From a virus (Duplodnaviria > Heunggongvirae > Uroviricota > Caudoviricetes), in the IMG/VR virus record IMGVR_UViG_3300037067_009442, positions 93,721 through 157,720 of that record: a stretch of DNA of 64,000 bases, one strand, 5' to 3'. Each line of letters starts with the position of its first letter. Within the stretch, counting starts at the first letter, position 1. Made by a program: the position numbers and the translations under genes. The notes under the pieces are model-generated. The model had not been told where the DNA came from. It ran no database searches and saw nothing but the letters and a program-made list of their open reading frames with translations. Below are positions 2,158-54,977 of this stretch, one piece after another.

Positions 2158-2564
2158 GTACGACGGTTAGCGGGCGTTGGGATTAGGTCCTCACGACCCC
2201 TAAAGGTCTTCTTCACGTTGCTGATGGTAATGGTCCACGCCTTAGCCTGCTCATCACCGCCCAAACCAACCTTCAAGCGGGCCGACCATCCAAGACGAGG
2301 AACCCGAACCGGGTCGTAATTGAACCCAGGATCATCCATCGAGATGAAGGTGTGGTTCGGATGCTCAGAGGCGAACTTCTTCATGTCACCCCAGAGCTCG
2401 TGAATGTCTTCCCAGTCAGTCGGGATAGGTGTGCTGTCCAAAGTCGACCCCATCCTCAAAGGCTTCCCAGGCTCACTAATTGACCAGTCACCGGGTACTG
2501 TACTCATGGCTTCAAGTACACCCCCAGGCTCACTGATTAACCATTCCCTTTTTACTTTACCCAT
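2094..2564 (-). CDS. hypothetical protein
   Basis: 156-aa ORF overlapping the stop of upstream 2557..3978. Confidence 0.6.
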   Translation of the reverse strand: MGKVKREWLISEPGGVLEAMSTVPGDWSISEPGKPLRMGSTLDSTPIPTDWEDIHELWGDMKKFASEHPNHTFISMDDPGFNYDPVRVPRLGWSARLKVGLGGDEQAKAWTITISNVKKTFRGREDLIPTPANRRTQLQELNKPQGEPSSGSDSQG

Positions 2565-3978
2565 GGCAACTCGGAGTGGGGAGGGTTACTCGAGACCTCT
2601 CAAGGTATGCCGAATCCTCATCCCAGTTCAAAACCTTCCATCCGATGGCGAGGGCCCAGGCCTCAAACCACTGGTACCCCTCATGAGGTAACTTCACCGT
2701 CCCCGGAGCTACCTTACGATAAAGATCCAAAACAAAAGCCTCAGGAAGACGTATGCCGCGAAACTCAGGAGCTACCTTGATCGGATCATGAACCCGACCC
2801 TCCAATCGCTCTACTACCTCCCTGGCTACCGTCTGTGCCGTCACCGCTTCCGACTGAGAGAGCCCCGACCTCCGGAACTCTTGAACCGTTAGAAGGTCCT
2901 GTACCTCCTCCAGAACCTCCCGTGGTGATACCCCATGAGGATAGACCGGTACCGAAGAGGATGGCTCCTCCTGACCCAGAGGAGAGTCGTCTACCTCGTC
3001 CCTGACCATCAAGGAGGCTAGGAGCCCTACCATGTCCCGATGGTACTTCATCCACTCAGCCCATGGTCGATCCTGCCCACCTGTCTCCGATGGCTGCCAT
3101 AAGACATTCCGATAGGCACAAACACACGTCATCCATACTGCCTCCGCTACCTCATAGAGGAACCCGTCAAGCTCCCCCTCCTGAACCCCTCCCTCCAATG
3201 CCATCAACCAATGAGTTCCCCATCCCGTAGGTAGCTCGTCCTTCAACACGTCCCCTAAATGATGCTCCCGACCCATCGGATGAAAAGCCCCCGCCCTCCG
3301 TATCGTCTCACGTACCGCTTGTATCGTCTTCCCCTCACTATGAAGCTCAAGAACCTTCTTCCGATCTGTCATCCCCGAGGTATCTACCGCCGATTCCAAC
3401 ATCTCGTTGCAAATGGCCCAGTAATCCCGAACATACTCGTGGATGTCACCAAAGGTCTCTACCTCCCCCTTCCAACTCCGTGTCCACGTCCCCATCGCTA
3501 ACTCCCACACATCCGAACGTATGAAAGCTGCCCTCACATGAACCGCTCGATTACTCCCCGTCGGTAACTCCGATGGCTTCGTAGCTTCCAAAGTGACCCT
3601 CCTCAAATCACCCCCAAACCCAGGAACTAATAGCCGCTCCTCCCACTGAGCATCCCACATCCCAGAGAAATCCATCCCTCGATGTACCGCTATGTCGTGA
3701 CTCGAATTCGCCCCTATACCTAATTCATACATGTCGGCCTGAAGACCACTTACCCACAGCCGCTCCATCACCGTCCCCAACTCCAATAGCTTCACCCCAC
3801 CATAATCGTCATACTTTCCCCGAATTGGAAACGTTCGTGGAAGCCACTTCGACGTAAAGTCCATCTTACTCTCACCCAACGTGGCCCGAGGGTGCTCCAC
3901 TACCAAAAGTACCCGCACCAATTCACCCTCACCTATCGGTAACCCACTCAACATGCACGTCTGGTTGAAGCTGCCCAT
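2557..3978 (-). CDS. hypothetical phage protein
   Basis: 473-aa ORF; N-terminus MGSFNQTCMLSGLPI...YDDYG. Confidence 0.75.
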   Translation of the reverse strand: MGSFNQTCMLSGLPIGEGELVRVLLVVEHPRATLGESKMDFTSKWLPRTFPIRGKYDDYGGVKLLELGTVMERLWVSGLQADMYELGIGANSSHDIAVHRGMDFSGMWDAQWEERLLVPGFGGDLRRVTLEATKPSELPTGSNRAVHVRAAFIRSDVWELAMGTWTRSWKGEVETFGDIHEYVRDYWAICNEMLESAVDTSGMTDRKKVLELHSEGKTIQAVRETIRRAGAFHPMGREHHLGDVLKDELPTGWGTHWLMALEGGVQEGELDGFLYEVAEAVWMTCVCAYRNVLWQPSETGGQDRPWAEWMKYHRDMVGLLASLMVRDEVDDSPLGQEEPSSSVPVYPHGVSPREVLEEVQDLLTVQEFRRSGLSQSEAVTAQTVAREVVERLEGRVHDPIKVAPEFRGIRLPEAFVLDLYRKVAPGTVKLPHEGYQWFEAWALAIGWKVLNWDEDSAYLERSRVTLPTPSCHG

Positions 3979-4388
3979 ATAAATTAGGACCCTACCCCAA
4001 CCCCGACCACCAAGTCACCCAAAAACATCCAAAAAACCAACTAGGCGAAGCAGGCCGGCAAGAAGCAAAGACCCAAACCCCCCAGAGAGAAGAAGAGAAG
4101 GACTCCCAGAGAGAGTCAGAGAAGGACAGAGACAAGGAACCCCCACCTACCCATGAGGAGGAGTGAGGACCACGTACATGAGGATGACCCCCCTAGACTC
4201 GGACACGGGGAGAAGGGAGGAGGAGAGAGTCACCTTCACCTCCCTAGAAGGATCCCTTCCTGTGTCCTTCCTATGAGCTTAGTACGGCCGTAAGGCCCAG
4301 ACTCCGCTGAAGTACTCCGTCCATCCCTCATGGTCACGTAGGGTCACTCCCAAGAGCCTCCAACTACCCAAGGTGTCTGTCCCTTGAC

Positions 4389-4464
4389 TGCTCCTGATCC
4401 TTCCCTTTGGCTTCCCCGATCCTTCCCCCGATCCCTCCCTTTGGGTGCTCCTGATCCTTCCCTT
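4389..4464. repeat. short direct repeats (TGCTCCTGATCCTTCCCTT x2 plus GATCCTTCCC partials)
   Basis: 19-bp copies at 4389-4407 and 4446-4464 in intergenic DNA. Confidence 0.7.
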
Positions 4465-4608
4465 GGCATCAATGGGCCGAAGAGCCAAATTGATGCCATG
4501 ATCCCCGTAAACCAAACGGACGTGCGGCCCGTGAGTATAATTTCACGAACGCAACAAATACCTTGACATTTCAAAGTCTCCTCATGGCTTCGCTCGTGAT
4601 TGACAGTG

Positions 4609-4650
4609 AATTGTGTGATATCCCGTTTAATAAATTGTGTGATTCACACA
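4609..4650. promoter_or_regulatory. operator-like palindrome TGTGTGA-T-TCACACA plus second half-site
   Basis: Palindrome 4636-4650; AATTGTGTGAT at both 4609 and 4633; AT-rich divergent intergenic region. Confidence 0.5.
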
Positions 4651-4748
4651 TTGACTGTTACCACTATGTGTAATCTCTTTAAGGATTAGGTCGAGTGGTG
4701 GGAACTAGTCAAGAGGCCGGCTGGGTGTCAGCGGTGTAGAGAGTGATC

Positions 4749-5003
4749 ATGGCAACGAAGGATGAATTGGTTGAGCAGTACAAGGATGAGAAGGCAAAGC
4801 TGGCTCGGGTCGAGCGGGCTATGGCCATTCAAAAGGAACGAGTGCAAGCACTGGCGAAAGTAATTTGTGAGGAGCATGGGAAGGGACCTTACGACCTCGG
4901 AGATGGGAAGCCGGAGGGGTACCAGATCCAATGTCGAGGTGGAGACACGTACTACTTCGTTGCCATAGTGCCGAAGGGCAAGAAGGCCTCGACCGATGCC
5001 TGA
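4749..5003 (+). CDS. hypothetical protein
   Basis: ATG 10 nt after GGTGTA; N-terminal coiled-coil-like segment. Confidence 0.7.
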   Translation: MATKDELVEQYKDEKAKLARVERAMAIQKERVQALAKVICEEHGKGPYDLGDGKPEGYQIQCRGGDTYYFVAIVPKGKKASTDA

Positions 5004-5592
5004 CTCTCCTGAGGTGATGCTCTCTGAGGTGATGGACCGATACCTGAGTCGATGCTGTGTGTGCTTCAGGGGGGCTACTCGCCAACTCAAGGGGTTGGTC
5101 ATCATGGAGGACGTTCCTGACTTCTGTGACCGTCATGGGGTTGATGACATCCCTCAGTACTGTATGATGAAGTCGGACGAGTATGAGGAGCTACCCCAGG
5201 CGGAGCTCGTTCGAAGGTACGAGGCTCTGCACCGGTGCCAGGGTCCTCTCCCCGAGTGTGCTTGGCATGGTGCGGTAGAGGGGTTCGTGGAGGCGGTGAA
5301 CGCCCGCTTCTGTGCCAGTCAAGATCCAAAGCCTGAGTCGATCTGGGTTAGGGTCCGACCACCCTCAGAGGAGGAGCTTGGGATTCAAGTCCACTACCCC
5401 AAGATGATGCCCTTCCTCCGAGTGGGCTCCCTTGCCCACGTCCTCTCTTGCTACTCTGGGGGCCCCCAAACTCGGTACGTTGAGATCCGGGTAGGGTCAT
5501 CCCCCGCTGTTTACACTCTCGAGGACTTCATGAAGACCTACATCAAGACCGTTGACTGGACCCCCGAGCAGGAAGGACCGCTCCATGACTGA
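4996..5592 (+). CDS. hypothetical protein (Cys-containing)
   Basis: 198-aa ORF overlapping both neighbours. Confidence 0.65.
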   Translation: MPDSPEVMLSEVMDRYLSRCCVCFRGATRQLKGLVIMEDVPDFCDRHGVDDIPQYCMMKSDEYEELPQAELVRRYEALHRCQGPLPECAWHGAVEGFVEAVNARFCASQDPKPESIWVRVRPPSEEELGIQVHYPKMMPFLRVGSLAHVLSCYSGGPQTRYVEIRVGSSPAVYTLEDFMKTYIKTVDWTPEQEGPLHD

Positions 5593-6160
5593 ACGACGTC
5601 GTAACCCATTCCGGAAGGAGAAGGGCAAGGAGGCTATTCCGGTTGTCTCTGACCCCAAGACCGGGATGTTGGTAGGGTACCGAGGATCGATACCCGGGAA
5701 GAGGAATGACAAGGTAGAGGTCCCAAAGAGGGGGAGGCCCAAGGGGAGCATTAAGAAGGTAACGGCAAAGTCTGCAAAGCGTAGGCTTCTGAATGAGATG
5801 ATCCAGAAGCGGAGGGAGAGGCTCAGGGAGGAGAAGTCCAGACCCCCCACCACCAAGAGGTCCTACCCCTCTCAGGTTGTCGTTCAGCTCCCTCATGAAA
5901 CCAGATCGATCCTCCTAGCTGAAGTGGAGAAGCGGACCCTGGCCCTAGGGGTCCGAGTCTACATCGCTGACGTCGCTCGAGACTACCTCGAGAAGGGGAT
6001 GCAGGAGGACTACCCTGGGCACAAGGTTGAGGGTGAGGTCCGCTCTTACCAGAAGCCCCAGCCTCCCCCTGACCCCTATGCTCGGTTCTCTGTCCGTCAG
6101 ACCCAACGCCTCAAGGTCCTTGGCATCACCCCTCCCCCCGAGGAGGAAGAAGAGGATTGA
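5585..6160 (+). CDS. basic DNA-binding protein (AT-hook plus RHH-like segment)
   Basis: PKRGRPKGS AT-hook; VVVQLP...IADVARDYLEKG resembles ribbon-helix-helix; Lys/Arg rich. Confidence 0.55.
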   Translation: MTERRRNPFRKEKGKEAIPVVSDPKTGMLVGYRGSIPGKRNDKVEVPKRGRPKGSIKKVTAKSAKRRLLNEMIQKRRERLREEKSRPPTTKRSYPSQVVVQLPHETRSILLAEVEKRTLALGVRVYIADVARDYLEKGMQEDYPGHKVEGEVRSYQKPQPPPDPYARFSVRQTQRLKVLGITPPPEEEEED

Positions 6161-6207
6161 CGGGTACGAGGGTCAATTAGAACTACATGTAAGACAGGGC
6201 TATTAGC

Positions 6208-6390
6208 ATGAACATGGTAGTAGCCTACATGTAGCTTGACTCTGAGGCCGATATTAGAGAGAGTCCGAGGTTCTAAGTCACCCTCTACGGGTATGAACCT
6301 GACTCAGAACTACATGTAAGATAGGCCTCATCAAGCCCTTACGAGTATGAACCCGGTCAATACCTACATGTAGTAGAGGCCCATGTTCAT
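6208..6390. repeat. cluster of ATGAAC-N11-CTACATGTA sites
   Basis: Copies at 6208, 6293, 6347 (+) and 6390 (-) with invariant 11-nt spacer. Confidence 0.8.
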
Positions 6391-6440
6391 ACTCGTAGGG
6401 TTTTTCTTCGTTTCCGTAGGTGAGGGGCTAGTGGGTTTTC

Positions 6441-6494
6441 CCGGCCCGCTGACGGAAACCTGCGCCACGTTGCAGGTTTCCGTCAGCGGGCCGG
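6441..6494. repeat. perfect 23-bp inverted repeat, 8-nt loop
   Basis: CCGGCCCGCTGACGGAAACCTGC / GCAGGTTTCCGTCAGCGGGCCGG. Confidence 0.95.
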
Positions 6495-6619
6495 ACCTCA
6501 GGTACGCAGAAATGCTCGATTTCTGAAATGACCTTAGACTAAAATTAGAGGGTCCGGTCTAATAGCCCCTCGGGACCTACCCTTCGCCCGCTGATACGTT
6601 GGCAATGTCATTGAAGAGG

Positions 6620-7312
6620 GGCTTCAGAGTCAAAGTAGGAGAAGCCGGTAGTTCGAGCTTCAGAGTCAAAGTAGGAGAAGCCGGTAGTTCGAGCTTCAGA
6701 GTCAAAGTAGGAGAAGCCGGTAGTCCGAGCTATCGAGTCAAACCAAGAGAAGCCGATGGTCCGAGCTTCAGAGTCAAAGTAGGAGAAGCCGATAGTCCGA
6801 GCTTCAGACTCAAACCAAGAGAAGCCGATAGTCCGAGCTTCAGACTCAAACCAAGAGAAGCCGATAGTCCGAGCTTCAGACTCAAACCAAGAGAAGCCGG
6901 TAGTTCGAGCTTCAGAGTCAAAGTAGGAGAAGCCGATAGTCCGAGCTATCGATTCAAACCAAGAGAAGCCGGTAGTTCGAGCTTCAGAGTCAAAGTAGGA
7001 GAAGCCGATAGTCTGAGCTTCAGAGTCAAAGTAGGAGAAGCCGATAGTTCGAGCTTCAGACTCAAAGTAGGAGAAGCCGATAGTTCGAGCTTCAGAGTCA
7101 AAGTAGGAGAAGCCGGTAGTCCGAGCTATCGAGTCAAAGTAGGAGAAGCCGATAGTCCGAGCTTCAGAGTCAAAGTAGGAGAAGCCGATAGTCTGAGTTA
7201 TCGACTCAAACCAAGAGAAGCCAGTAGTCGGAGCTATCGATTCAAACCAAGAGAAGCTGGTAGTCGGAGCTATCGATTCAAACCAAGAGAAGCCGATAGT
7301 CGGGGCTTCAGG
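6620..7312 (+). repeat. 36-bp tandem repeat array, 19 copies plus partial
   Basis: Consensus AGCTTCAGAGTCAAAGTAGGAGAAGCCGATAGTCCG; open frame 6599..7390 gives SFRVKVGEADSP repeats. Confidence 0.95.
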
Positions 7313-7574
7313 GTTGACTTACTTCAAGGGGGCGGGGTAAGGTCCTGGGGTCTCTCAGGCTTCAATAGGTCGGAGGATAATCCCACGTGAGGCTCGAACT
7401 GCATATGAGCTATCCATGGTTATAGCAATTATGACCTTCGAGAAGATGTGCCGGGAAGATCCGAACTATTAAAGCCGGGCTTTTTAATAATCAGGGCCCT
7501 ACCAAAGACGGAGACGATGGAAGGCCGATCCCTTGACCTGTTGGGAGAAACAATAGACAGGTCAGTACTCTCCT

Positions 7575-7859
7575 ATGAAAAACAGAGTGTTCTGGGTCGA
7601 CAAGTTCAATCTTGCGTCTATTCAAGGTCGGGAACTTGATAGAATGGCCGACAAGTTGACGCAGCAGATCACCCTGAAGACTGGTGTCAGGAAGGGGTAT
7701 CAGGACCGACGGGGGATTGCCCAGTTACGGTCAAGGTTGGCCCATCTAGTCCGGAGGTCGCTCTACCTGAAGGGTAGGATGGTCTACTATGATGAGAGGA
7801 TCATAGCCTTGGAGAACCGGAGTAGGTTTGATCGGATTCTGAGGAGCCCGGTCATTTAG
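7575..7859 (+). CDS. hypothetical protein with TRFER-type C-terminal tag
   Basis: Ends SRFDRILRSPVI*. Confidence 0.65.
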   Translation: MKNRVFWVDKFNLASIQGRELDRMADKLTQQITLKTGVRKGYQDRRGIAQLRSRLAHLVRRSLYLKGRMVYYDERIIALENRSRFDRILRSPVI

Positions 7860-8251
7860 GTGGTTGACACCCCGAAGGGGTTGAGGTAACCTCTACCTCG
7901 CTCCTGGTGACTCTAGGACCTCCCAAGACAGGGCCAGCCCCTTCCTCTCTGAGAGAGCCTCCTAGGTACCCAGACCTGAGCAAGGATAGTTACGGTGCTG
8001 AGCTCATGGATTCCCATAGAGCAGTTCCTCAAGGGAACGGTAGTGAGTAAGTGAGATCATCTCTGTGTCTTGGGTCAGCCTCCCCACCCTCTGGGTAAAC
8101 AGGCCTTGAAGACCGCTCGAGTGCCCTCACCAATCCCTTCCGATCCTGACAAGAAGCTGACCTAAGAGCCTAAATGAGTAAGAGCAGATTGCGCTTGGAT
8201 CCCCACCTTGAACGGTGAGCCGGATACCAGGCTAAAGTGGTTTAAAAGGGG

Positions 8252-8332
8252 ATGTAGGTATTGACCGGGTTCATGCCGGTAAGGAGGCTTTTCGTGCTCT
8301 ATAGGCATGAACAGGGCTACAACCTACATGTA
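8252..8332. repeat. second cluster of ATGAAC-N11-CTACAT(GTA) sites; inverted copy of 6337-6369
   Basis: 8252-8284 matches reverse complement of 6337-6369 at 30/33 nt; direct site at 8307-8332. Confidence 0.8.
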
Positions 8333-8336
8333 TTAC

Positions 8337-9152
8337 CTACTCGAATTGCACTGCTAGTACAAGACCCTCCTCAGACGTGGGGGATACACTGAGGTTGTAG
8401 GGTATCTCTCCTAAGCGAGAGTGGCCATTGAAGGTGATGTAGAGGGTCCTGATCCCGTTGTTGGTGTACTCCCTCACCCCAGCGTTGATGCCAAGGTGCC
8501 GAAGGGCTCGAACGATATCCCCTAAGTGGAGCTCTCTTAGCTCTTCGTCAGTGAGTCTGTCCCCTGGCTCTGCAATAGGGGCGCCCTCTGAAGTACTTGA
8601 CTGAACTGGCTCTTCATCCGGGTCTAAGGCAGCTAGCAAAGAAGCTACTCCGAACACCCCTTGATGCGTTACCACAAATTGAGCTTCGAGGGCCTGTCGA
8701 GCGTTCTCTAATGTTTCTTCGTCCTGGGTGTCTTCGGTAGCTATCTCAAGGAGGGTGCGGGGAAGGGAGGTTGCCTCATGGACTACCTCTACCGGCTCTT
8801 CAGGGGGAGGGAAGAGGATCATTGCATCTTCGTAGGACAGCTCCTCCCGAACTCTCTCTACAGCTCTTTGCTGTATGTCTGGGGACACCTGAGGTGGCTC
8901 AAGGTGAGCCTGGGCTCCCACGAGAGCCATAGCTATTCGATGGACCCCCGGAGGCAACTCAGGGTACCGAGAAGCTCGGGGCATGGGGTGGAGTAACGCC
9001 GAGCGAGGAGCCCTCTGAGCTACCTCAGCGATCAGAGGAGGGACTTCGAAGCCTACTTGAGGTCCGAGGGCTTCATCCATCTCCTGAAACATCTCTTCAG
9101 GGGCTCGAGGGACATGCTCCCAGTAGTCTTCAACGTCGTCAGTATCGGACAT
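8337..9152 (-). CDS. hypothetical protein, acidic-W N-terminal family
   Basis: Starts MSDTDDVEDYWE; C-terminal LRHLGINAGV domain shared with 9320..11017 and 39054..39761. Confidence 0.75.
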   Translation of the reverse strand: MSDTDDVEDYWEHVPRAPEEMFQEMDEALGPQVGFEVPPLIAEVAQRAPRSALLHPMPRASRYPELPPGVHRIAMALVGAQAHLEPPQVSPDIQQRAVERVREELSYEDAMILFPPPEEPVEVVHEATSLPRTLLEIATEDTQDEETLENARQALEAQFVVTHQGVFGVASLLAALDPDEEPVQSSTSEGAPIAEPGDRLTDEELRELHLGDIVRALRHLGINAGVREYTNNGIRTLYITFNGHSRLGEIPYNLSVSPTSEEGLVLAVQFE

Positions 9153-9333
9153 GCATGATGCTCCTATTCGAGGTGGAAGGCCATTTACCTATGATCCGAG
9201 TCCCGTCCCAATCGAAGAAGTTCCCGTCGTAGACCTGGGCAACCTGGTACATCTCATAGGTCGGGACCGGAGGCGAGGGCCATAGTTCGGGACGGAAGGC
9301 CTCCCAGTAAGACTCAATGCTATCTTCGGGCAT
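9139..9333 (-). CDS. small protein, acidic-W N-terminal family
   Basis: Starts MPEDSIESYWE; overlaps both neighbours. Confidence 0.65.
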   Translation of the reverse strand: MPEDSIESYWEAFRPELWPSPPVPTYEMYQVAQVYDGNFFDWDGTRIIGKWPSTSNRSIMHVRY

Positions 9334-11017
9334 TGGGAAACCCTAGGCTCAAGTGGACCCTACCATCATCGCTCTGCCAACCCCCGATGCTTGTAGGGCT
9401 CTCGGGAGTATCTACGAAGAGGCTGAACTCAAGCTCAACAGTCCTGACTGCATCCCCTAGGTGATTGGACACTTGACAATGGACACCAAGGTCATTGAAA
9501 AGACCAGCCAAGCGAAGCAAGGTGGCGCTCATCCGATGGTCTTGAAGCCGAGGTGGGAGTCTACTACCTCCCTCAGCTAACCTTCGGTGCTCCTCAGGGG
9601 AGGCGAGTACAGCATCCTCGACCCCTAAGGTTGGGGATGCTGCCGTTATCTGAAGCCTCGTCTCATTACCAGCTGGTCCCACTATGGGCACAGAGCTCAG
9701 CATGAGATTAGTCTCTAATTGAAGATCTTCTTCCGCTGCCCTCTCTGGGGTGAAGTCCATGCGGAGCCCACCGTTCTCTTGGTACTCCCTCACGAGGGAG
9801 CTTCGGGTCCTGACAATTCCGTGAGCTAAGTACCAAGTGGCGTTCTCCCCTACTTGGTAGTGCATCCTCACTGCTTCTCTTTGGCTCATCATCTCGTCGT
9901 TTACTCTCACGAGTGATTCGACATGAGCTCCGTCCCCAAGCCGTTGAATTGCAGCTTGGAAGTTAGGATCCCCACTCAACTGCTGTAGTAGCCCTTGGGT
10001 TAGAGGGGAAGTAGTGACTTCTCGGAGGCGTTGGATCTCTTGAGCTAGTGCAGCTCGGGGTCCATGAAGTTGAGTGCTTGGGACTTGGTTACCAGGGGTT
10101 CCTGGAGCGGGGTGTTGCTCCTCAGTCCACCAAGGGTTGTTGCCGTTTGCAATCCTTTGGTTCATGGCATCTAGTGCAGTACGCTCAGCTTGGGCACCAC
10201 GCTCAGCCTCAATCCAATGAGGTAACCCGCTCTCAATCTCCTGCGTTAGGGTAGCTCGGAGATTGGCCACTGTCTCAGGATTAATTGTAATGCCCCGATC
10301 CCTCATTAGGTTCATGGTGGCAAGGGTACGAGCTTCGAGCTCAGCGTAGTCAACGTTGGGGAGGGATTCGGGTGTGTCTACATCTGGTGCTGACCTAGTA
10401 GACTCCTCAAACTGTTGCTGCAAATGCATCCGTACCCGTGTAATAATGGACTGGTCAACTTCAATGCCCCTCCCTCTTAGCTCATTCAAGTAAGCTTGAA
10501 CGTTCCGCTCGAGCTCGGCGGCGGTCTCACTAGGTAGTGTTTGACTTGTAGGAGGGGCATTAAGGATCTGCTGAAGGCGATCGAGAGCTGCATTTACACT
10601 AGGCTCTTGATTGAGGGCGCTGATAACAGGGTACCCTAAGCGAACCATATCTTCTATCGGCTGCCTCAAACCCCTTCTCTGGATCGCAGTTTCCCAAGGT
10701 CGGATACTCCATGCAAAGCCAGGAGGGAGGGGAGTGTTAGGGATAGGAGTCAGAGTCGCTAGGTACCCCCGAGCATAACGCTCAAGTTCTGATGAAGCAG
10801 GGCCCTGTCCTTGCCCTCGAGTATAGGCATTCCTCAGAAGAGCTGCGGACTCTGAAGGCGCAGAAAAGTCACCCACCTGAAGAGCTGCAGAAGGTGCGGG
10901 AGCATAGCATCGTCGGAGACGGGCAAGCTCAGGGCTGATCTCTTGGGAGATCCCAGGGGGCGCTTCCACGGGAGACGGTCGTAACCCTTCCCAGAACTCT
11001 TCAATGTCTTCCGGCAC
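9320..11017 (-). CDS. large helical hypothetical protein, acidic-W N-terminal family
   Basis: 565 aa; starts MPEDIEEFWE; GTG 10 nt after GGTGTA. Confidence 0.8.
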   Translation of the reverse strand: MPEDIEEFWEGLRPSPVEAPPGISQEISPELARLRRCYAPAPSAALQVGDFSAPSESAALLRNAYTRGQGQGPASSELERYARGYLATLTPIPNTPLPPGFAWSIRPWETAIQRRGLRQPIEDMVRLGYPVISALNQEPSVNAALDRLQQILNAPPTSQTLPSETAAELERNVQAYLNELRGRGIEVDQSIITRVRMHLQQQFEESTRSAPDVDTPESLPNVDYAELEARTLATMNLMRDRGITINPETVANLRATLTQEIESGLPHWIEAERGAQAERTALDAMNQRIANGNNPWWTEEQHPAPGTPGNQVPSTQLHGPRAALAQEIQRLREVTTSPLTQGLLQQLSGDPNFQAAIQRLGDGAHVESLVRVNDEMMSQREAVRMHYQVGENATWYLAHGIVRTRSSLVREYQENGGLRMDFTPERAAEEDLQLETNLMLSSVPIVGPAGNETRLQITAASPTLGVEDAVLASPEEHRRLAEGGSRLPPRLQDHRMSATLLRLAGLFNDLGVHCQVSNHLGDAVRTVELEFSLFVDTPESPTSIGGWQSDDGRVHLSLGFPNARR

Positions 11018-11318
11018 GTCGGGACACTACACCAAAAGGCTCCTCTGTGGTAGGCTCTTCCCCGTGACCACTTCGTGGGCTGAATCAAATTGCAGGGAAT
11101 GCATTCACAAGCCGCACCTTGTCAAGGTTATTGGGGAGTCCTCAGGGTTCTCCACGTGCATCAAGGGGATGCACGTTTACTATTGGTGGCCTTGGGACCG
11201 GTCTGATGTCCCCTTAGAAGTTGAGATAGCACTCCCTGAGGACCGCTCTTGCCCTCACAAGGAGAAGGAACCTCTCACCCGCTTCCAAAGGATCCTCCAA
11301 GAAGATGACAGCCCCTAA
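11004..11318 (+). CDS. four-Cys protein with TRFER tag
   Basis: CRECIH..C..C; ends LTRFQRILQEDDSP*; true start possibly GTG near 11063. Confidence 0.7.
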   Translation: MSSGTSGHYTKRLLCGRLFPVTTSWAESNCRECIHKPHLVKVIGESSGFSTCIKGMHVYYWWPWDRSDVPLEVEIALPEDRSCPHKEKEPLTRFQRILQEDDSP

Positions 11319-11520
11319 CAGCTGCGATGGATGCCTCCACATACCGGCACCCGGCTTTTACAAGGATGGCCTCACCCACTGCCTTGTTCATCGAGAGGTT
11401 CACTACAAGAAGGTGGCAGACGGTACTCACTTTTTTAATCGATCAAACTGGCCCTGTCCTTTCAAGGTAGAACCCAAGACAAGGTTCCAAAGGATCCTCG
11501 AAGAAGATGCCCCTCTGTGA
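11305..11520 (+). CDS. four-Cys protein with TRFER tag
   Basis: CDGCLH..C..C; ends KTRFQRILEEDAPL*. Confidence 0.75.
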   Translation: MTAPNSCDGCLHIPAPGFYKDGLTHCLVHREVHYKKVADGTHFFNRSNWPCPFKVEPKTRFQRILEEDAPL

Positions 11521-11959
11521 TACATGCCAATGGAGGCACCCCGAGAGGGAGAGTGAATACCAGGTCTCTAGGGCAGGCGGTCTTCAGTACCTGTGTTTAG
11601 CCCACCATCGTAGCCCCCTCCTAAGGGCTCTACCAGATGGGACCTACCCAGAGTTCAATCTCTGTGAGGACTATCAGAAGAAGAACTTTGCATGCGAAGC
11701 CTTCAAGTGCAGAGACTGTAGGTATGCCCCTGACTACCCCCTCAAGGGGAGTACCACTAGGACCCCTCAGGACCCTGCCCCTCTCTGGGGACTAGGCTAC
11801 ACGTGTGATCAAGGATATCATGTGAAGCCTACCTGGGATGCCCTACCTGATGGCTCCTACCTATCCACCCTCCTACGTTGGCCCCCTGTAGAGGATGAGT
11901 GCTTCTCCTACCTACCTGTGGAGAGGCTCACTCGCTTCGCTCGTATCTTGGCTGAGTAA
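11507..11959 (+). CDS. tandem four-Cys protein with TRFER tag
   Basis: Two CxxC-led units; ends LTRFARILAE*. Confidence 0.75.
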   Translation: MPLCDTCQWRHPERESEYQVSRAGGLQYLCLAHHRSPLLRALPDGTYPEFNLCEDYQKKNFACEAFKCRDCRYAPDYPLKGSTTRTPQDPAPLWGLGYTCDQGYHVKPTWDALPDGSYLSTLLRWPPVEDECFSYLPVERLTRFARILAE

Positions 11960-12082
11960 CCAAGAGCCCTACAGTTACCCTGCAATGCTAGGCCCTACCC
12001 AACAGGGGTAGTGGCATGAGCCTTGCCTTGTATGCTCTTCCAACTACAGCATACACACGAGCCCTAGTATTACTACACAACG

Positions 12083-12136
12083 CACACACTACACACAGTT
12101 GAGCCCATATAACACAGTGCTTGTGTGTAGTGTGTG
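12083..12136. repeat. 15-bp inverted repeat CACACACTACACACA / TGTGTGTAGTGTGTG
   Basis: Perfect arms at 12083-12097 and 12122-12136 in an ~830-bp gene-poor region. Confidence 0.85.
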
Positions 12137-12792
12137 AAGCAAGAGAAGTCTTTGTGTGGCTTAATGTTCAAACTGTATGCCAACACACGCCCGCAAGGGG
12201 CGTGCCAACGGGCCCACAATTTTATACAAATTCGCTTCATTATCATACCGGCTGGCCTATAACCCCTTAAATCCGCGTATTCAATACCCGTGCGATAGGA
12301 ATACCGTGGTAGGGGTAATTGCCTGGAAATACCTTTACCCCTTCGGGGTGGGGTCTCTCGATGGCCCCGAGTAGGACCCCTACCCCTTTATTTTAGGGCA
12401 TTTTCAAAATCCTAGACCTTGGCCTCGATTTTGAAAATTCTGGCCCGGTGGAGTATTTTTCCGAAAAGGGTAATTAACTCAGGGTTCGGGGCAAGAGCCT
12501 TTGCATGGCTCGTGGGAGGGGTCAGGAGAGGTGCAGGACTCTGGGGGTGCAGGAGAGTGACAGGGCTCGGGGCAGGCGTCCTTGAGGCAACTGGCAATGG
12601 GCAGTGACCTTTCTACTCGAGGGATTGGGGTCACCAGTGAGGGGTTCATGGCGGTGAGGGGTCTTCTGGTTCGGGTACAGGTTCACGACGGGCTAGGACC
12701 GTCCCCCATGAAGATGGGACCCAATGGGCGGGACCCGATTTCCGATTTGTCATGGGGCGGTTTAATTTTTTGGGGATCCTACGGATCCTGCT

Positions 12793-13998
12793 ATGGTCCA
12801 TAGCGTGTCAAGTAGAGGAAAGGGCAAAAGGGAAGAGAGTAGAAGTAACCTCTTAGGTATTGATGTCCCTCACGACCGGTTTTCGAAAAGGGAAGCTACA
12901 AAGTTGGGGGTGTCAATCGAAGACTACCTCAAGGCCAAAGCTTTGGGACAGCGTTACTGTCGCGTCCATGGACTCCAAGACCTCAAGGGGTACAACGTTA
13001 CAGGTAAGAAGGAGACTCACTACCAGTGTAAGAAGTGCGCAGCTGACCGAAAGAAAACTCATCCGGAAGTTTACTCCCGCTTAGCAAGGGAAAGAAGTCG
13101 TAGGGTTCGGAGAGAGGTTCTTGAGCACTACTCCCCAGATTTAGTTTGCTCCATCTGTGGAGAAGGGCACTACGAGTTCCTGTGTTTGGACCATATCAAT
13201 GGTGGAGGGGCAGAGCATCGGAGATCGAGAGGTGACTTCTACTGGGTGAGTTTCAAGAGGGAAGGGTGGCCATCGGGGTTCCGAGTTCTGTGTTACAACT
13301 GCAACCTGAAGCATGGGTGCAGGGACTTCTATGGGACAGGAGCGGTGAACCGAAAGATTTCGGATGACCCTTCAGAGCTCGCGGCCATGACTCCTCGGGA
13401 ACGGGCAAGTGTCCTCTTCAGATTGAGGCACCCAGACAAGATGGCAGAGCACGTCAAGAAAGCTCAGGTGAAGTTGAAGGCGGACGTGATGCTTCACTAT
13501 GGTGGCAAGTGTGCTTGCTGTGGGACTGACGACCTAGAGGTTCTGAGCATCGACCACATCAACAACGATGGGGCTACTCACCGGCGGGAGCTTCGAGCTC
13601 GAGGAGAGAGGTTCAGTTACAACTGGCTGAAGAAGAATGGGTACCCTCCTGGGTTCCAGCCTCTCTGTATGAACTGCAATTCGGCCAAGGGTCACTGGGG
13701 AGAGTGCCCTCATTGTCGGGAGGGTTCTTCGGTTGGACCATCAGAGCGACCGGTTGAGTACCTTCGGACTTCGGAGGCGAGCAGTTTGGCTCACGCAGCT
13801 CGGAGGGATGAGGGGAAGCGGGAGAAGGCCATTCGGGAGTTCTCGGAGGCCTACACGGCAATCCAGAACAGTGGGCCTAGGCAGGTAGCGGCGATAAGTC
13901 GGAGGCTGGGGATCTCTCAGGGTATTCTTACGAGGATCTTGAGGGGGACTCACTGGTCGTGTCGATTCCTGGTTGAGAATCAGGCAGTTGATACGTAG
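12793..13998 (+). CDS. HNH endonuclease with two HNH/zinc modules and C-terminal HTH
   Basis: CSICG..LDHINGGG..HRR..LCYNCN and CACCG..IDHINNDG..HRR..LCMNCNSAK. Confidence 0.8.
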   Translation: MVHSVSSRGKGKREESRSNLLGIDVPHDRFSKREATKLGVSIEDYLKAKALGQRYCRVHGLQDLKGYNVTGKKETHYQCKKCAADRKKTHPEVYSRLARERSRRVRREVLEHYSPDLVCSICGEGHYEFLCLDHINGGGAEHRRSRGDFYWVSFKREGWPSGFRVLCYNCNLKHGCRDFYGTGAVNRKISDDPSELAAMTPRERASVLFRLRHPDKMAEHVKKAQVKLKADVMLHYGGKCACCGTDDLEVLSIDHINNDGATHRRELRARGERFSYNWLKKNGYPPGFQPLCMNCNSAKGHWGECPHCREGSSVGPSERPVEYLRTSEASSLAHAARRDEGKREKAIREFSEAYTAIQNSGPRQVAAISRRLGISQGILTRILRGTHWSCRFLVENQAVDT

Positions 13999-14001
13999 GA
14001 T
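13973..14001 (+). promoter_or_regulatory. sigma70-type promoter, leaderless
   Basis: TTGAGA-N17-TAGGAT; ATG 14007. Confidence 0.8.
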
Positions 14002-14006
14002 AGATC

Positions 14007-15074
14007 ATGGCCGCCCCGAAGTCCAAGCCCTACGGAGTCATCTACCTTGTCACCTGCAAAGTGAATGGCAAGAAGTACGTGGGTCAGACTAAGTTTACTC
14101 TAAAAAAGAGATGGGGAGAGCACCTCAAGAAAACGAAGTCAGGGTGCCAACTATACTTCCATAATGCTATTAGAAAGTATGGGGTAGGTAACTTCAGTTG
14201 CTTGGAGCTTGAGGTATGCCAAAGTGAAAACCTCAATGCAGCTGAGTCCAAGTGGATTGCCTACTACGATTGCCAGTACCCTAATGGGTACAACCTAACG
14301 AGTGGGGGAGAGGTTTTTACCTTCTCACCTGAGGTAGTAGCAAGAATCTCATCTAGTCTAGTTAGATTTTATGCGGAGCACCCTGAAGCTAAAGAAGCTG
14401 TCTCTGTCAGACTTCAAAAAATCTTCTCTGAGTCTCAAGCACGTCAGGATCAATCCCGAAGGATTACTAAGTTCTTTTTGGAGCACCCTGAAGCTAAGGT
14501 AAGTCTATCTAACAGTCTTATTCGATTTCACGAAGAGCACCCTGAAGCTGGTTTGGAGCAATCAAGGAAGCTTACCCACTTCTGGAGTAACTCAAGGGTG
14601 CGGAGGAACCACTCGACTAAGTTACTCAAGTACAATGCAAGTCACCCAGATAAGAGGGGTCGCCACTCTGAAGTAATGCGCAAGATATGCAGTGACTCGA
14701 CTTATAGGAGTAGGTTATCCCTCATTAGCTTACAGTACAATACAAGTCACCCGGAAAAGGGGCACAACCACTCAGTTGTAATGAGAGAGATTGGTACATC
14801 CCTTTCATATAAACGAAAACAGTCCAAGGCTCAAAAGAAATCATACCTTGAACACCCAGAGCGGCATAAGGTAGCTAAGGATAGTTTGGATCGAGGAAGG
14901 GAGACAAGGTGGGGTCAGCATCGATTAGAGCAGGCCTCCAAGCTAGCGGCGGTAAGGGCGGCAGTCGAGAGTCGAGGATCTACCACTCTAGTAGAGATTT
15001 CTACTGAGTTTGGGGTTTCCCTGAGAACTATAGCAAGAATTAAAGACGGAACTCATTGGGTGTGCCATAGGTAG
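14007..15074 (+). CDS. GIY-YIG homing endonuclease (Seg-like)
   Basis: GVIYLVT...KYVGQT...RW.EH...AIRKYG..NF..E...NGYN; repeated EHPEA-type helices; C-terminal HTH. Confidence 0.9.
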   Translation: MAAPKSKPYGVIYLVTCKVNGKKYVGQTKFTLKKRWGEHLKKTKSGCQLYFHNAIRKYGVGNFSCLELEVCQSENLNAAESKWIAYYDCQYPNGYNLTSGGEVFTFSPEVVARISSSLVRFYAEHPEAKEAVSVRLQKIFSESQARQDQSRRITKFFLEHPEAKVSLSNSLIRFHEEHPEAGLEQSRKLTHFWSNSRVRRNHSTKLLKYNASHPDKRGRHSEVMRKICSDSTYRSRLSLISLQYNTSHPEKGHNHSVVMREIGTSLSYKRKQSKAQKKSYLEHPERHKVAKDSLDRGRETRWGQHRLEQASKLAAVRAAVESRGSTTLVEISTEFGVSLRTIARIKDGTHWVCHR

Positions 15075-15860: not shown

Positions 15861-15889
15861 TTGAGATCCTAGACCCTCGTACGTAGGAT
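15861..15889 (+). promoter_or_regulatory. sigma70-type promoter, leaderless
   Basis: TTGAGA-N17-TAGGAT; ATG 15895. Confidence 0.85.
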
Positions 15890-15894
15890 AGGGT

Positions 15895-16140
15895 ATGGAA
15901 GCTCAATTCGCGGTAATCGGGACGGACGGAACTCGGCCAGTTGTCTGGGGTATTGGTACAGATCCTGAGGTGGCCATGGAGGAGGCACAGGGTAACCTGA
16001 TTGATGCGGGGTGTGACTACGCGGAGGATTTGTTGACGGTCTCGGTGACTTCAGAGCAGGCGGAGTTGATTTCGGGTGGGGAGGTCAGTACGGAGGCTCT
16101 TGGGATTGAGTTACCAGCGGCTTGGCTGGAGAGTCAATGA
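15895..16140 (+). CDS. hypothetical protein, paralogue of 16614..17033
   Basis: IGTDGT.PV.WG.G motif in both. Confidence 0.8.
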   Translation: MEAQFAVIGTDGTRPVVWGIGTDPEVAMEEAQGNLIDAGCDYAEDLLTVSVTSEQAELISGGEVSTEALGIELPAAWLESQ

Positions 16141-54493: not shown

Positions 54494-54522
54494 TTGAGAT
54501 CCGAGCCTCTCATACGTAGGAT
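54494..54522 (+). promoter_or_regulatory. sigma70-type promoter, leaderless
   Basis: TTGAGA-N17-TAGGAT; ATG 54528. Confidence 0.85.
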
Positions 54523-54527
54523 AGATC

Positions 54528-54977
54528 ATGTCCATCATCAATCTACTAGCTAGCGTCATCTGTACTACCTTCGAAAGTACCTGTGGGAAGTGGCAAAGTA
54601 AGAAGCCCGAACCCAAGGCCTTCGTGGTCAAGTTCTCTGTTAGGGTAGATCACGAGAAGGAAGAGGGTTATCGCCAAAGGGACCTAGCCCTCTATGCTGA
54701 ATGCAACTACGTAAGTGTCTTCGTTCGGGATCGGTGGAATGTCATCCCAATTGAAGACCTCGAGTATGATGAGGAGACTGAGGATACCTACGTCAAGAAG
54801 GGTAAGGACTACCATCAAGGCCAATCCGAGTGGAAGCTCCTAGTCTCCCATGACTCTTGCTGGCGGAGTGCGGTAGAGGAGTTCATTCGGGAGAACTCAA
54901 ACAACCTCAACACATTTGACAGCCCTGGTGGCTTCTACGAGCTCACTCCTTCAGCCGAATTCACCATTTCTGGTTGA
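54528..54977 (+). CDS. hypothetical protein
   Basis: Bounded by two promoter copies; stop lies in the next -35 box. Confidence 0.75.
   Translation: MSIINLLASVICTTFESTCGKWQSKKPEPKAFVVKFSVRVDHEKEEGYRQRDLALYAECNYVSVFVRDRWNVIPIEDLEYDEETEDTYVKKGKDYHQGQSEWKLLVSHDSCWRSAVEEFIRENSNNLNTFDSPGGFYELTPSAEFTISG

Follow-up and report, generated by a model that had tools for sequence, protein, structure and literature searches.

The stretch of phage DNA considered here (the window) comprises 64,000 nucleotides, bases 93,721-157,720 of the 228,619-bp IMG/VR record IMGVR_UViG_3300037067_009442, which is estimated to be 45% complete. The two largest gaps in this record that are free of open reading frames (ORFs), at window positions 7860-8336 and 6161-6598, lie at a single locus, and both carry copies of a short, directional DNA site. 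This site, its counterparts in related phages, and a small gene that accompanies it there are the subject of the present analysis.

The initial annotation described the site as bipartite, ATGAAC-N11-CTACATGTA, with a fixed 11-nt spacing, and listed five exact copies and one partial copy, all of which are confirmed. The exact matches lie at 6208-6233 (+), 6293-6318 (+), 6347-6372 (+), 6365-6390 (-), and 8307-8332 (+); dinucleotide shuffles of the window predict 0.09 matches, and none of 100 shuffles reaches five. A fuzzy scan of the whole record recovers the partial copy at 8249-8274 (-), adds a degenerate seventh at 6166-6191 (+), and finds no copy outside the locus. CTACATGTA by itself occurs seven times in the window, counting both strands (0.31 expected), and is confined to the locus record-wide; the single other GAAC-N11-CTACAT in the record is isolated, 18.5 kb left of the locus. 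The elements and the spacing, which is exactly 11 bases in all copies, thus stand as first described. However, alignment of the copies reveals a longer site that is tripartite and directional rather than bipartite, TA-N5-nnGAAC-N11-CTACAT(G/C/A)T, and across phages the general form is TA-N5-(A/C)(T/C)GAAC-N11-CTACATGT.

The window contains seven of these half-sites, in both orientations. In the leftmost, A0 (6166-6191, +), the core CTACATGTA is intact at 6183-6191 and the hexamer is lost. Site A1 (6200-6233, +) carries TA at 6201-6202, ATGAAC at 6208-6213, and the core at 6225-6233, and is followed by A2 (6285-6318, +). Sites A3 (6339-6372, +) and A4 (6365-6398, -) then lie face-to-face around a common palindromic core, CTACATGTAG at 6364-6373. 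The symmetric 44-bp site previously noted here (6347-6390) is real, and its dyad reaches 64 bp (6337-6400). On the right, B1 (8249-8282, -), with the core CTACATCC and the same spacer as A3, stands back-to-back with B2 (8299-8332, +).

Close-relative searches with the flanking proteins (8337-9152, 5552-6160, the 1624-aa protein, P0001, and alignment A1) gave no relatives, and a 565-aa neighbor protein has one homologue, carried by an 8.3-kb contig. Homologues of a 473-aa protein (2557-3978) are carried by contigs as long as 510 kb, and three IMG/VR records were retrieved with the alignment of these homologues: G001 (452 kb, estimated to be 94% complete), G002 (67 kb), and G003 (66 kb). In G001, which has neither the motif nor the linked protein discussed below (A8), the 473-aa gene lies among genes that all run in one direction, a comparable locus is absent, and this genome was set aside as a syntenic comparison. 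Genes of G002 and G003 are 75-82% identical. Proteins common to both and to the window's record (G000), at 60-70% identity, are ATP-grasp, Thg1, RNA ligase, and ThiF; as enzymes rather than DNA binders, they were rejected as candidates for a protein that binds the sites. A scan of metagenome contigs with a two-site pattern added the loci L121, L134, L135/L143, L136, and L144, and one further locus, L149, was retrieved via the A8 protein only, without use of the motif. Scans of IMG/VR returned 80 isolated chance matches and no clusters with the exact motif, and coding tandem repeats only with the two-site pattern.

Clusters of the tripartite site are present in G002, G003, L121, L134, L135/L143, L136, L144, and L149, and each cluster in these eight other loci contains 3-7 half-sites in both orientations. 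There are two clusters each in G002 and G003 (4.8 and 5.8 kb apart), and the clusters of a 443-kb contig and a 13-kb contig are identical to those of G003. Among 42 half-sites from eight loci, information is high at TA, GAAC, and CTACATGT and almost nil in the spacers. Likewise, orthologous sites of G002 and G003 keep the elements while their 11-nt spacers diverge; the region of the right cluster is the best conserved long stretch between these two genomes (86%), and its differences lie in the spacers. A half-site spans ~31 bp, and core centers lie 54-56 bp apart in every relative (for example 56, 56; 54, 56, 56, 56; 54, 54, 54), with L121 adding a single 55 and a single 58. Half-sites are paired in two ways: back-to-back around a common TA over 58 bp (ATGTAG-N11-GTTCAT-N5-TA-N5-ATGAAC-N11-CTACAT), a dyad compared with which B1 and B2 have ~20 extra bases between their TA elements, or face-to-face around CTACATGTAG in a dyad of 44-64 bp, as found in three lineages (the window, L134, and L136). 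The two types of dyad center alternate every 28 bp. The helical phasing of binding sites proposed in the initial annotation is supported by this comparison, in which the elements are retained, the 11-nt spacers change, and core centers keep to the 54-56-bp lattice; the window copy is itself irregular. Judged from the sequences, these are putative docking sites of a sequence-specific DNA-binding protein, forming an operator or architectural array within an origin-proximal control region, a reading to which we would give an even chance.

Other explanations of the locus were weighed. The 33-nt inverted repeat formed by 6337-6369 and 8252-8284 is confirmed (91% complementary), and the identity of the A3 and B1 spacers implies recent copying or exchange between the two. 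These repeats might be crossover sites at which site-specific recombination flips the 1.9-kb segment between them, an explanation that fits both the repeat and the identical spacers. However, no recombinase gene is present in or near the segment, flipping the segment would exchange no gene ends and switch no promoter, and the clusters of both G002 and G003 lie in the same (-)(+)(+) order and hence are direct, not mirror-image. Thus, inversion is highly improbable. The least probable of the explanations is a transposon or a non-autonomous mobile element that ends in several transposase sites, as in Tn7 or Mu, or else a pac/cos site. Several directional sites of ~30 bp in two clusters would suit such an element, as would the lack of synteny between phages in the genes flanking the locus. 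Yet the vicinity has no gene for a transposase or a terminase, no duplication of a target site is seen, the direct clusters of the relatives do not resemble mirror-image ends, the 56-bp lattice runs on through both orientations, and the locus is single-copy. Neither the recombination nor the packaging or terminus role put forward by the initial annotation is thereby upheld.

If the sites instead dock a protein of their own, a conserved small gene in the relatives is its most likely source. The A8 protein (~165 aa from the start codon) is an orphan with 54-70% identity across its alignment. Its gene, located at L101:7801-8346 in G002, points away from a cluster at a distance of 250-350 bp in G002, L134, L136, L143, and L144; in G003, another gene has been inserted between the A8 gene and the cluster. 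Counting L149, the A8 gene is found downstream of a cluster in seven relatives. L149 constitutes an independent test, since it was reached through the protein alone: a four-site cluster is present 1.85 kb upstream of its A8 gene, again with an inserted gene between them. The family comprises 48 clusters, all unnamed and with no Pfam family, several of them on contigs of 100-435 kb. This linkage, which the initial annotation had missed, points to a dedicated DNA-binding protein, and we infer that the lineage-specific A8 protein is the most likely candidate for the binder. Its AlphaFold model (predicted local distance difference test, pLDDT, 60; predicted template modeling score, pTM, 0.55) contains two strand-helix-helix (beta-alpha-alpha) units and has no Foldseek match; no PDB sequence match was found either. 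In a wide structural search with the model, the top match was DndE at Z 5.2, which is under the level that the tool calls meaningful, and many weak matches (Z 2.6-4.3) were to ribbon-helix-helix proteins, including a subunit of the F-plasmid relaxosome, TraM, single-chain Arc, NikR, and antitoxins. The nearest named Atlas clusters, at 0.80-0.81, are of the ParB_C, ParG, and NikA types, and serve as leads only. The model is thus suggestive of a tandem ribbon-helix-helix-like fold, which is not established.

The position of the sites relative to promoters is informative as well. The promoter of this phage is a cassette of ~40 bp, of which the record has at least 25 near-identical copies, and which consists of GGTTGAGATC, a spacer, TACGTAGGAT, AGATC, and ATG, that is, a -35 element TTGAGA, a 17-bp spacer, a -10 element TAGGAT, and, after 5 bp, ATG at the expected transcription start. 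Since the start codon follows the -10 element by only five bases, many genes of the phage appear to be leaderless. The copies can be written as GGTTGAGATC...CTC(A/G)TACGTAGGATAGATCATG, with examples in the window at 1779-1818, 13973-14009, 15861-15897, and 54494-54530. In relatives, the outermost (-) site is followed at 8, 18, or 26 nt by a promoter of the cassette type, and in L134 a σ70-type leaderless promoter lies ~55 nt beyond the last (+) site; in all, σ70-type leaderless promoters are present 8-55 nt outside the outermost site in four lineages. Because the promoters lie beyond the sites, the sites are upstream elements rather than the promoter itself.

It might nevertheless be argued that the sites are tandem and divergent early promoters used by an alternative σ factor or by an RNA polymerase of the phage, with GAAC resembling a -35 and CTACAT a -10 element. 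Indeed, the motif is directional and was seen as bipartite, the clusters fall at the boundaries of divergent transcription units among small, early-type genes, and σ-like genes are present in these phages. Yet the actual promoter of the phage is the different, ~40-bp cassette, and the gap of 11-12 bp between the two elements is not typical of a promoter class; we know of no σ class that it would fit. In addition, face-to-face pairs that have one core in common (three lineages) would fire into each other, several sites aim into the 3' ends of converging genes, and the sites occur at a single locus per genome rather than at many places. Such a promoter function is therefore very unlikely. The simpler idea that the sites are the σ70 promoter of the phage was rejected, as the real cassette differs and none is present in window 4000-12000, and a likeness to heat-shock, extracytoplasmic function (ECF), or sporulation σ promoters was dropped because the spacing does not fit.

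As operators, the clusters have well-known counterparts in phages. The C1 operators of P1 lack symmetry, at times with two of them overlapping in inverted orientation, and the clusters described here, like these and like λ OL/OR, bracket a short region at divergent promoters. In contrast, operators of the λ and P1 kind are 17 bp long and overlap the promoter, whereas the present sites lie 8-55 bp upstream of promoters on a 56-bp lattice, and a temperate lifestyle is not indicated here.

Between and around the clusters of the window lie several other features. A perfect hairpin at 6441-6494, with a 23-bp stem and an 8-nt loop, lies 72 nt past the last (+) core, and a long hairpin is likewise found 64-105 nt past (+) sites in G002, G003, and L121. 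It is followed at 6621-7311 by a tandem array of 19 units of 36 bp, whose variants are of two states and change block-wise. An ORF at 6599-7390 covers the array and was rejected as a gene: its variation at codon positions 1/2/3 is 39/27/8, lowest at the third, and its Pfam and PHROG matches are low-complexity noise. The array is thus probably non-coding repeat DNA, which makes 6161-7574 essentially non-coding. Partial units of the array are also present between A1 and A2 (6236-6280; an inverted unit at 6236-6249 matches at 13/14 bases, and a direct one at 6259-6280 at 73-82%), so that the two repeat families are interleaved. A gene for 94 aa at 7575-7859 (+), between the clusters, is preceded by a weak promoter layout of the leaderless type, TTGGGA-N17-AGTACT-N5-ATG. 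The non-coding stretch that follows (7860-8248) has no significant RNA fold, 7860-8245 folding no better than shuffles on either strand, and no Rfam match; there is no credible Rfam match elsewhere in the window locus or in the loci of the relatives. Adjoining the cluster on the left, at 5552-6160 (+), is a gene for a basic protein of 202 aa (191 aa from ATG). This protein contains a GRPKG AT-hook-like motif, and a segment modeled as an extended strand and two helices may be a ribbon-helix-helix unit, although its structural matches to such proteins are weak. Its C-terminus ends ...PPPDPYARFSVRQTQRLKVLGITPP and an acidic tail, and the tail is kept in both of its homologues.

The locus also lies near a switch in base composition. 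Cumulative GC skew has its minimum in the window at 4595, 1.6 kb left of the sites; because the record is incomplete, this minimum is only local, and skew is resolved in the window to ~8 kb. The minima of G002 (16313) and G003 (18523) are global, and each lies less than 100 bp from the right cluster. Each minimum, moreover, is within ~20 bp of a common element, GTGAATTGTGTG ... TGTGATTCAC, which in the window occupies 4606-4647 (+) inside a 760-bp non-coding stretch (3979-4742). GTGAATTGTGTG has a single copy in each genome, and TGTGATTCAC has one copy in G000 and two each in G002 and G003. In these last two genomes the element is adjacent to the right cluster, and in the window it lies 1.6 kb left of the sites. 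Cumulative skew has been used in the same way for genomes assembled from metagenomes (PMC7111523). When genes of the two strands are treated separately, the component of skew that does not depend on transcription changes from about -0.04 in the left arm (59-98 kb of the record) to values of +0.05 to +0.075 in the right arm (106-160 kb), and (+) genes alone differ by 0.12 between the arms. This component flips sign at ~98-106 kb and again at ~59 kb. Such sign changes suggest a replication-linked strand asymmetry in the phage, and a strand-independent change of sign is expected of a bidirectional replication origin. The central control region thus probably contains or adjoins the origin of replication.

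Whether the sites themselves belong to the origin is a separate question, and the origin proposed in the initial annotation gains support at the level of the region and not at that of the sites. The main rival to a protein-bound operator or architectural array is that the sites are bound by an initiator or accessory protein, as iterons are, at a bidirectional origin where the hairpin, repeats, and promoters aid opening and priming. A skew minimum falls within this same control region in three genomes, the strand-independent component switches sign across it, and both of the largest ORF-free gaps are here with the tandem array and the perfect hairpin between them. In relatives, seven copies of GTGAAT followed by a stretch of 68-70% A+T lie beside the right cluster (in G002, the seven copies fall within 160 bp at the GTGAATTGTGTG/TGTGATTCAC element). 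Iteron replicons, in addition, likewise place a gene beside its own repeats. These replicons and oriP of Epstein-Barr virus (EBV), with an initiator gene between two clusters of binding sites and with a dyad element plus a family of tandem repeats, resemble the locus in several respects: a small gene has phased sites nearby in two clusters separated by a few kb, a dyad-symmetric element adjoins a long tandem array (19 x 36 bp), and skew switches here. Unlike in those systems, the unit of the array is without the site motif, no initiator of the winged-helix Rep type or the EBNA1 type was detected, and a clear unwinding element is missing from the window: within 6000-8500, A+T over 40 bp reaches only 62%. 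Furthermore, in the window the skew minimum falls where the gene strand switches, at a distance of 1.6 kb from the sites, and in a record that is 45% complete it can count only as local. Neither Pfam nor PHROGs identifies an initiator, helicase-loader, or primase gene nearby, and a scan at up to one mismatch finds no cluster of DnaA boxes at the window locus. (The GTGAAT copies of the relatives were considered as DnaA boxes and rejected; they are partial look-alikes, and the same scan gives no cluster.) On balance, we regard iteron-like initiator sites as possible but somewhat unlikely.

In relatives, the GTGAAT repeats are followed by a conserved block of 43 nt, GTTATTTTAGAATTT(T/C)GGGCCG.GT.GGTTTGGTATTTGCGGG (L101:12502-12544, L102:13711-13753, and L121:2668-2710; 40/43 identical between G002 and L121), and then by short hairpin repeats that are lineage-specific. 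The window has no convincing copy of this block, and a candidate match at 12440-12475 was rejected as no better than shuffles.

Arrays with both regulatory and structural roles are known from plasmids. In omega of pSM19035/inc18, ParG, and ParR, a small protein occupies many short direct, convergent, or divergent sites by promoters and its own gene; binding is cooperative and phased, and one locus serves both regulation and DNA positioning. The present loci are similar in having several copies of a site, direct and inverted, within 100-300 bp. They differ in that the plasmid repeats are contiguous and 7-11 bp long, whereas here half-sites of three elements and ~31 bp recur with a period of 54-56 bp, and in that the A8 protein is a single chain of two units with no sequence similarity to the plasmid proteins and no partner ATPase in view. 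A centromere-like partition site, at which the phased sites, and perhaps the 36-bp array too, are covered by a ribbon-helix-helix centromere-binding protein that positions or segregates the phage DNA in the manner of omega, ParG, ParR, or SopB/sopC, would account for one locus per genome, for sites in both orientations, and for a candidate binder that is ribbon-helix-helix-like and has the centromere-binding ParB_C and ParG types as its nearest named Atlas clusters (leads only, as above); the long tandem array beside the sites would also be explained. However, no nucleoside triphosphatase (NTPase) of the ParA, ParM, or TubZ type was detected near the protein or the sites by Pfam and PHROG searches of the window, G002, and G003, the relatives are without a long tandem array, and a plasmid-like lifestyle is not indicated. 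Partition is thus quite unlikely. A further counterpart is TraY at the oriT of the F plasmid, a tandem ribbon-helix-helix protein in one chain, whose monomer of two beta-alpha-alpha units recognizes an asymmetric site and assembles a larger nucleoprotein complex; we propose that A8 acts alike. The F relaxosome chain 9f0x_E is among the best structural matches of A8 (Z 4.3, 83 residues aligned); this match is weak, and, unlike the F system, the present one belongs to a phage with no relaxase or transfer genes.

An operator or architectural array bound by a dedicated protein might then work as follows. Each half-site would be read one way, through TA, nnGAAC, and CTACATGT, and half-sites would pair either back-to-back through the common TA (58-bp dyad) or face-to-face through the common CTACATGTAG (44-64-bp dyad). 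As a core repeat of 54-56 bp corresponds to about five helical turns, bound protein would lie on one face of the DNA and could build a continuous complex across 110-220 bp. From the place of the sites we infer that such a complex may control the gene of the binder and the neighboring divergent early transcription units, and may organize the central non-coding control region.

Several observations weigh against this account. The A8 gene is not found in the window's own 228-kb record, although that record is 45% complete, and the 202-aa protein beside the left cluster was rejected as its homologue, since hhalign shows no relation. Support for the A8 fold is weak (pLDDT 60, no Foldseek match, best Z 5.2), and a 28-bp half-lattice of three-element sites is unlike the compact 7-11-bp arrays of ribbon-helix-helix proteins. 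The left cluster of the window has core spacings of 42, 85, and 54 bp and the right cluster one of 76 bp, so that the window copy is an irregular, rearranged version of the array. Finally, no promoter cassette of the σ70 type lies within 4 kb of the window sites, and a regulatory target near them is accordingly not evident.

To our knowledge, almost nothing is known about how replication starts and early transcription is organized in half-megabase phages, and the present clade is without a cultured member. The loci described here supply a conserved cis-element of exact geometry, a candidate trans-factor (48 clusters, restricted to the clade), and the position of a skew switch. If the protein binds, a 56-bp lattice with two alternating dyad centers would represent an unusual form of cooperative DNA recognition. 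A bolder proposal, which we regard as doubtful, is that the lattice and A8 form an undescribed origin-marking or DNA-organizing nucleoprotein system of this clade, with a double ribbon-helix-helix chain polymerizing where bidirectional replication and divergent transcription start. The site would also offer a practical means of locating the origin or control region of these phages in assembled metagenomes.

Two other kinds of sequence deserve mention. Genes of the homing-endonuclease type (HNH, GIY-YIG, T5orf172, and zinc-finger) adjoin them in several relatives, and some of these insertions separate the cluster from the conserved gene; such genes are located at L101:6868-7368, L101:13080-13820, L102:7661-8452, L102:13893-14687, L149:1200-2770, and, in the window, 12793-15074. 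Immediately before the last of these, a further non-coding stretch of ~830 bp (11960-12792) contains an inverted repeat, CACACAC...GTGTGTG, at ~12075-12137, and 27-bp units are repeated in tandem at 12518-12572. GTG(T/A)nTGTGTG words like those of this stretch recur in G002 and G003, 1.6-2.2 kb left of the left cluster.

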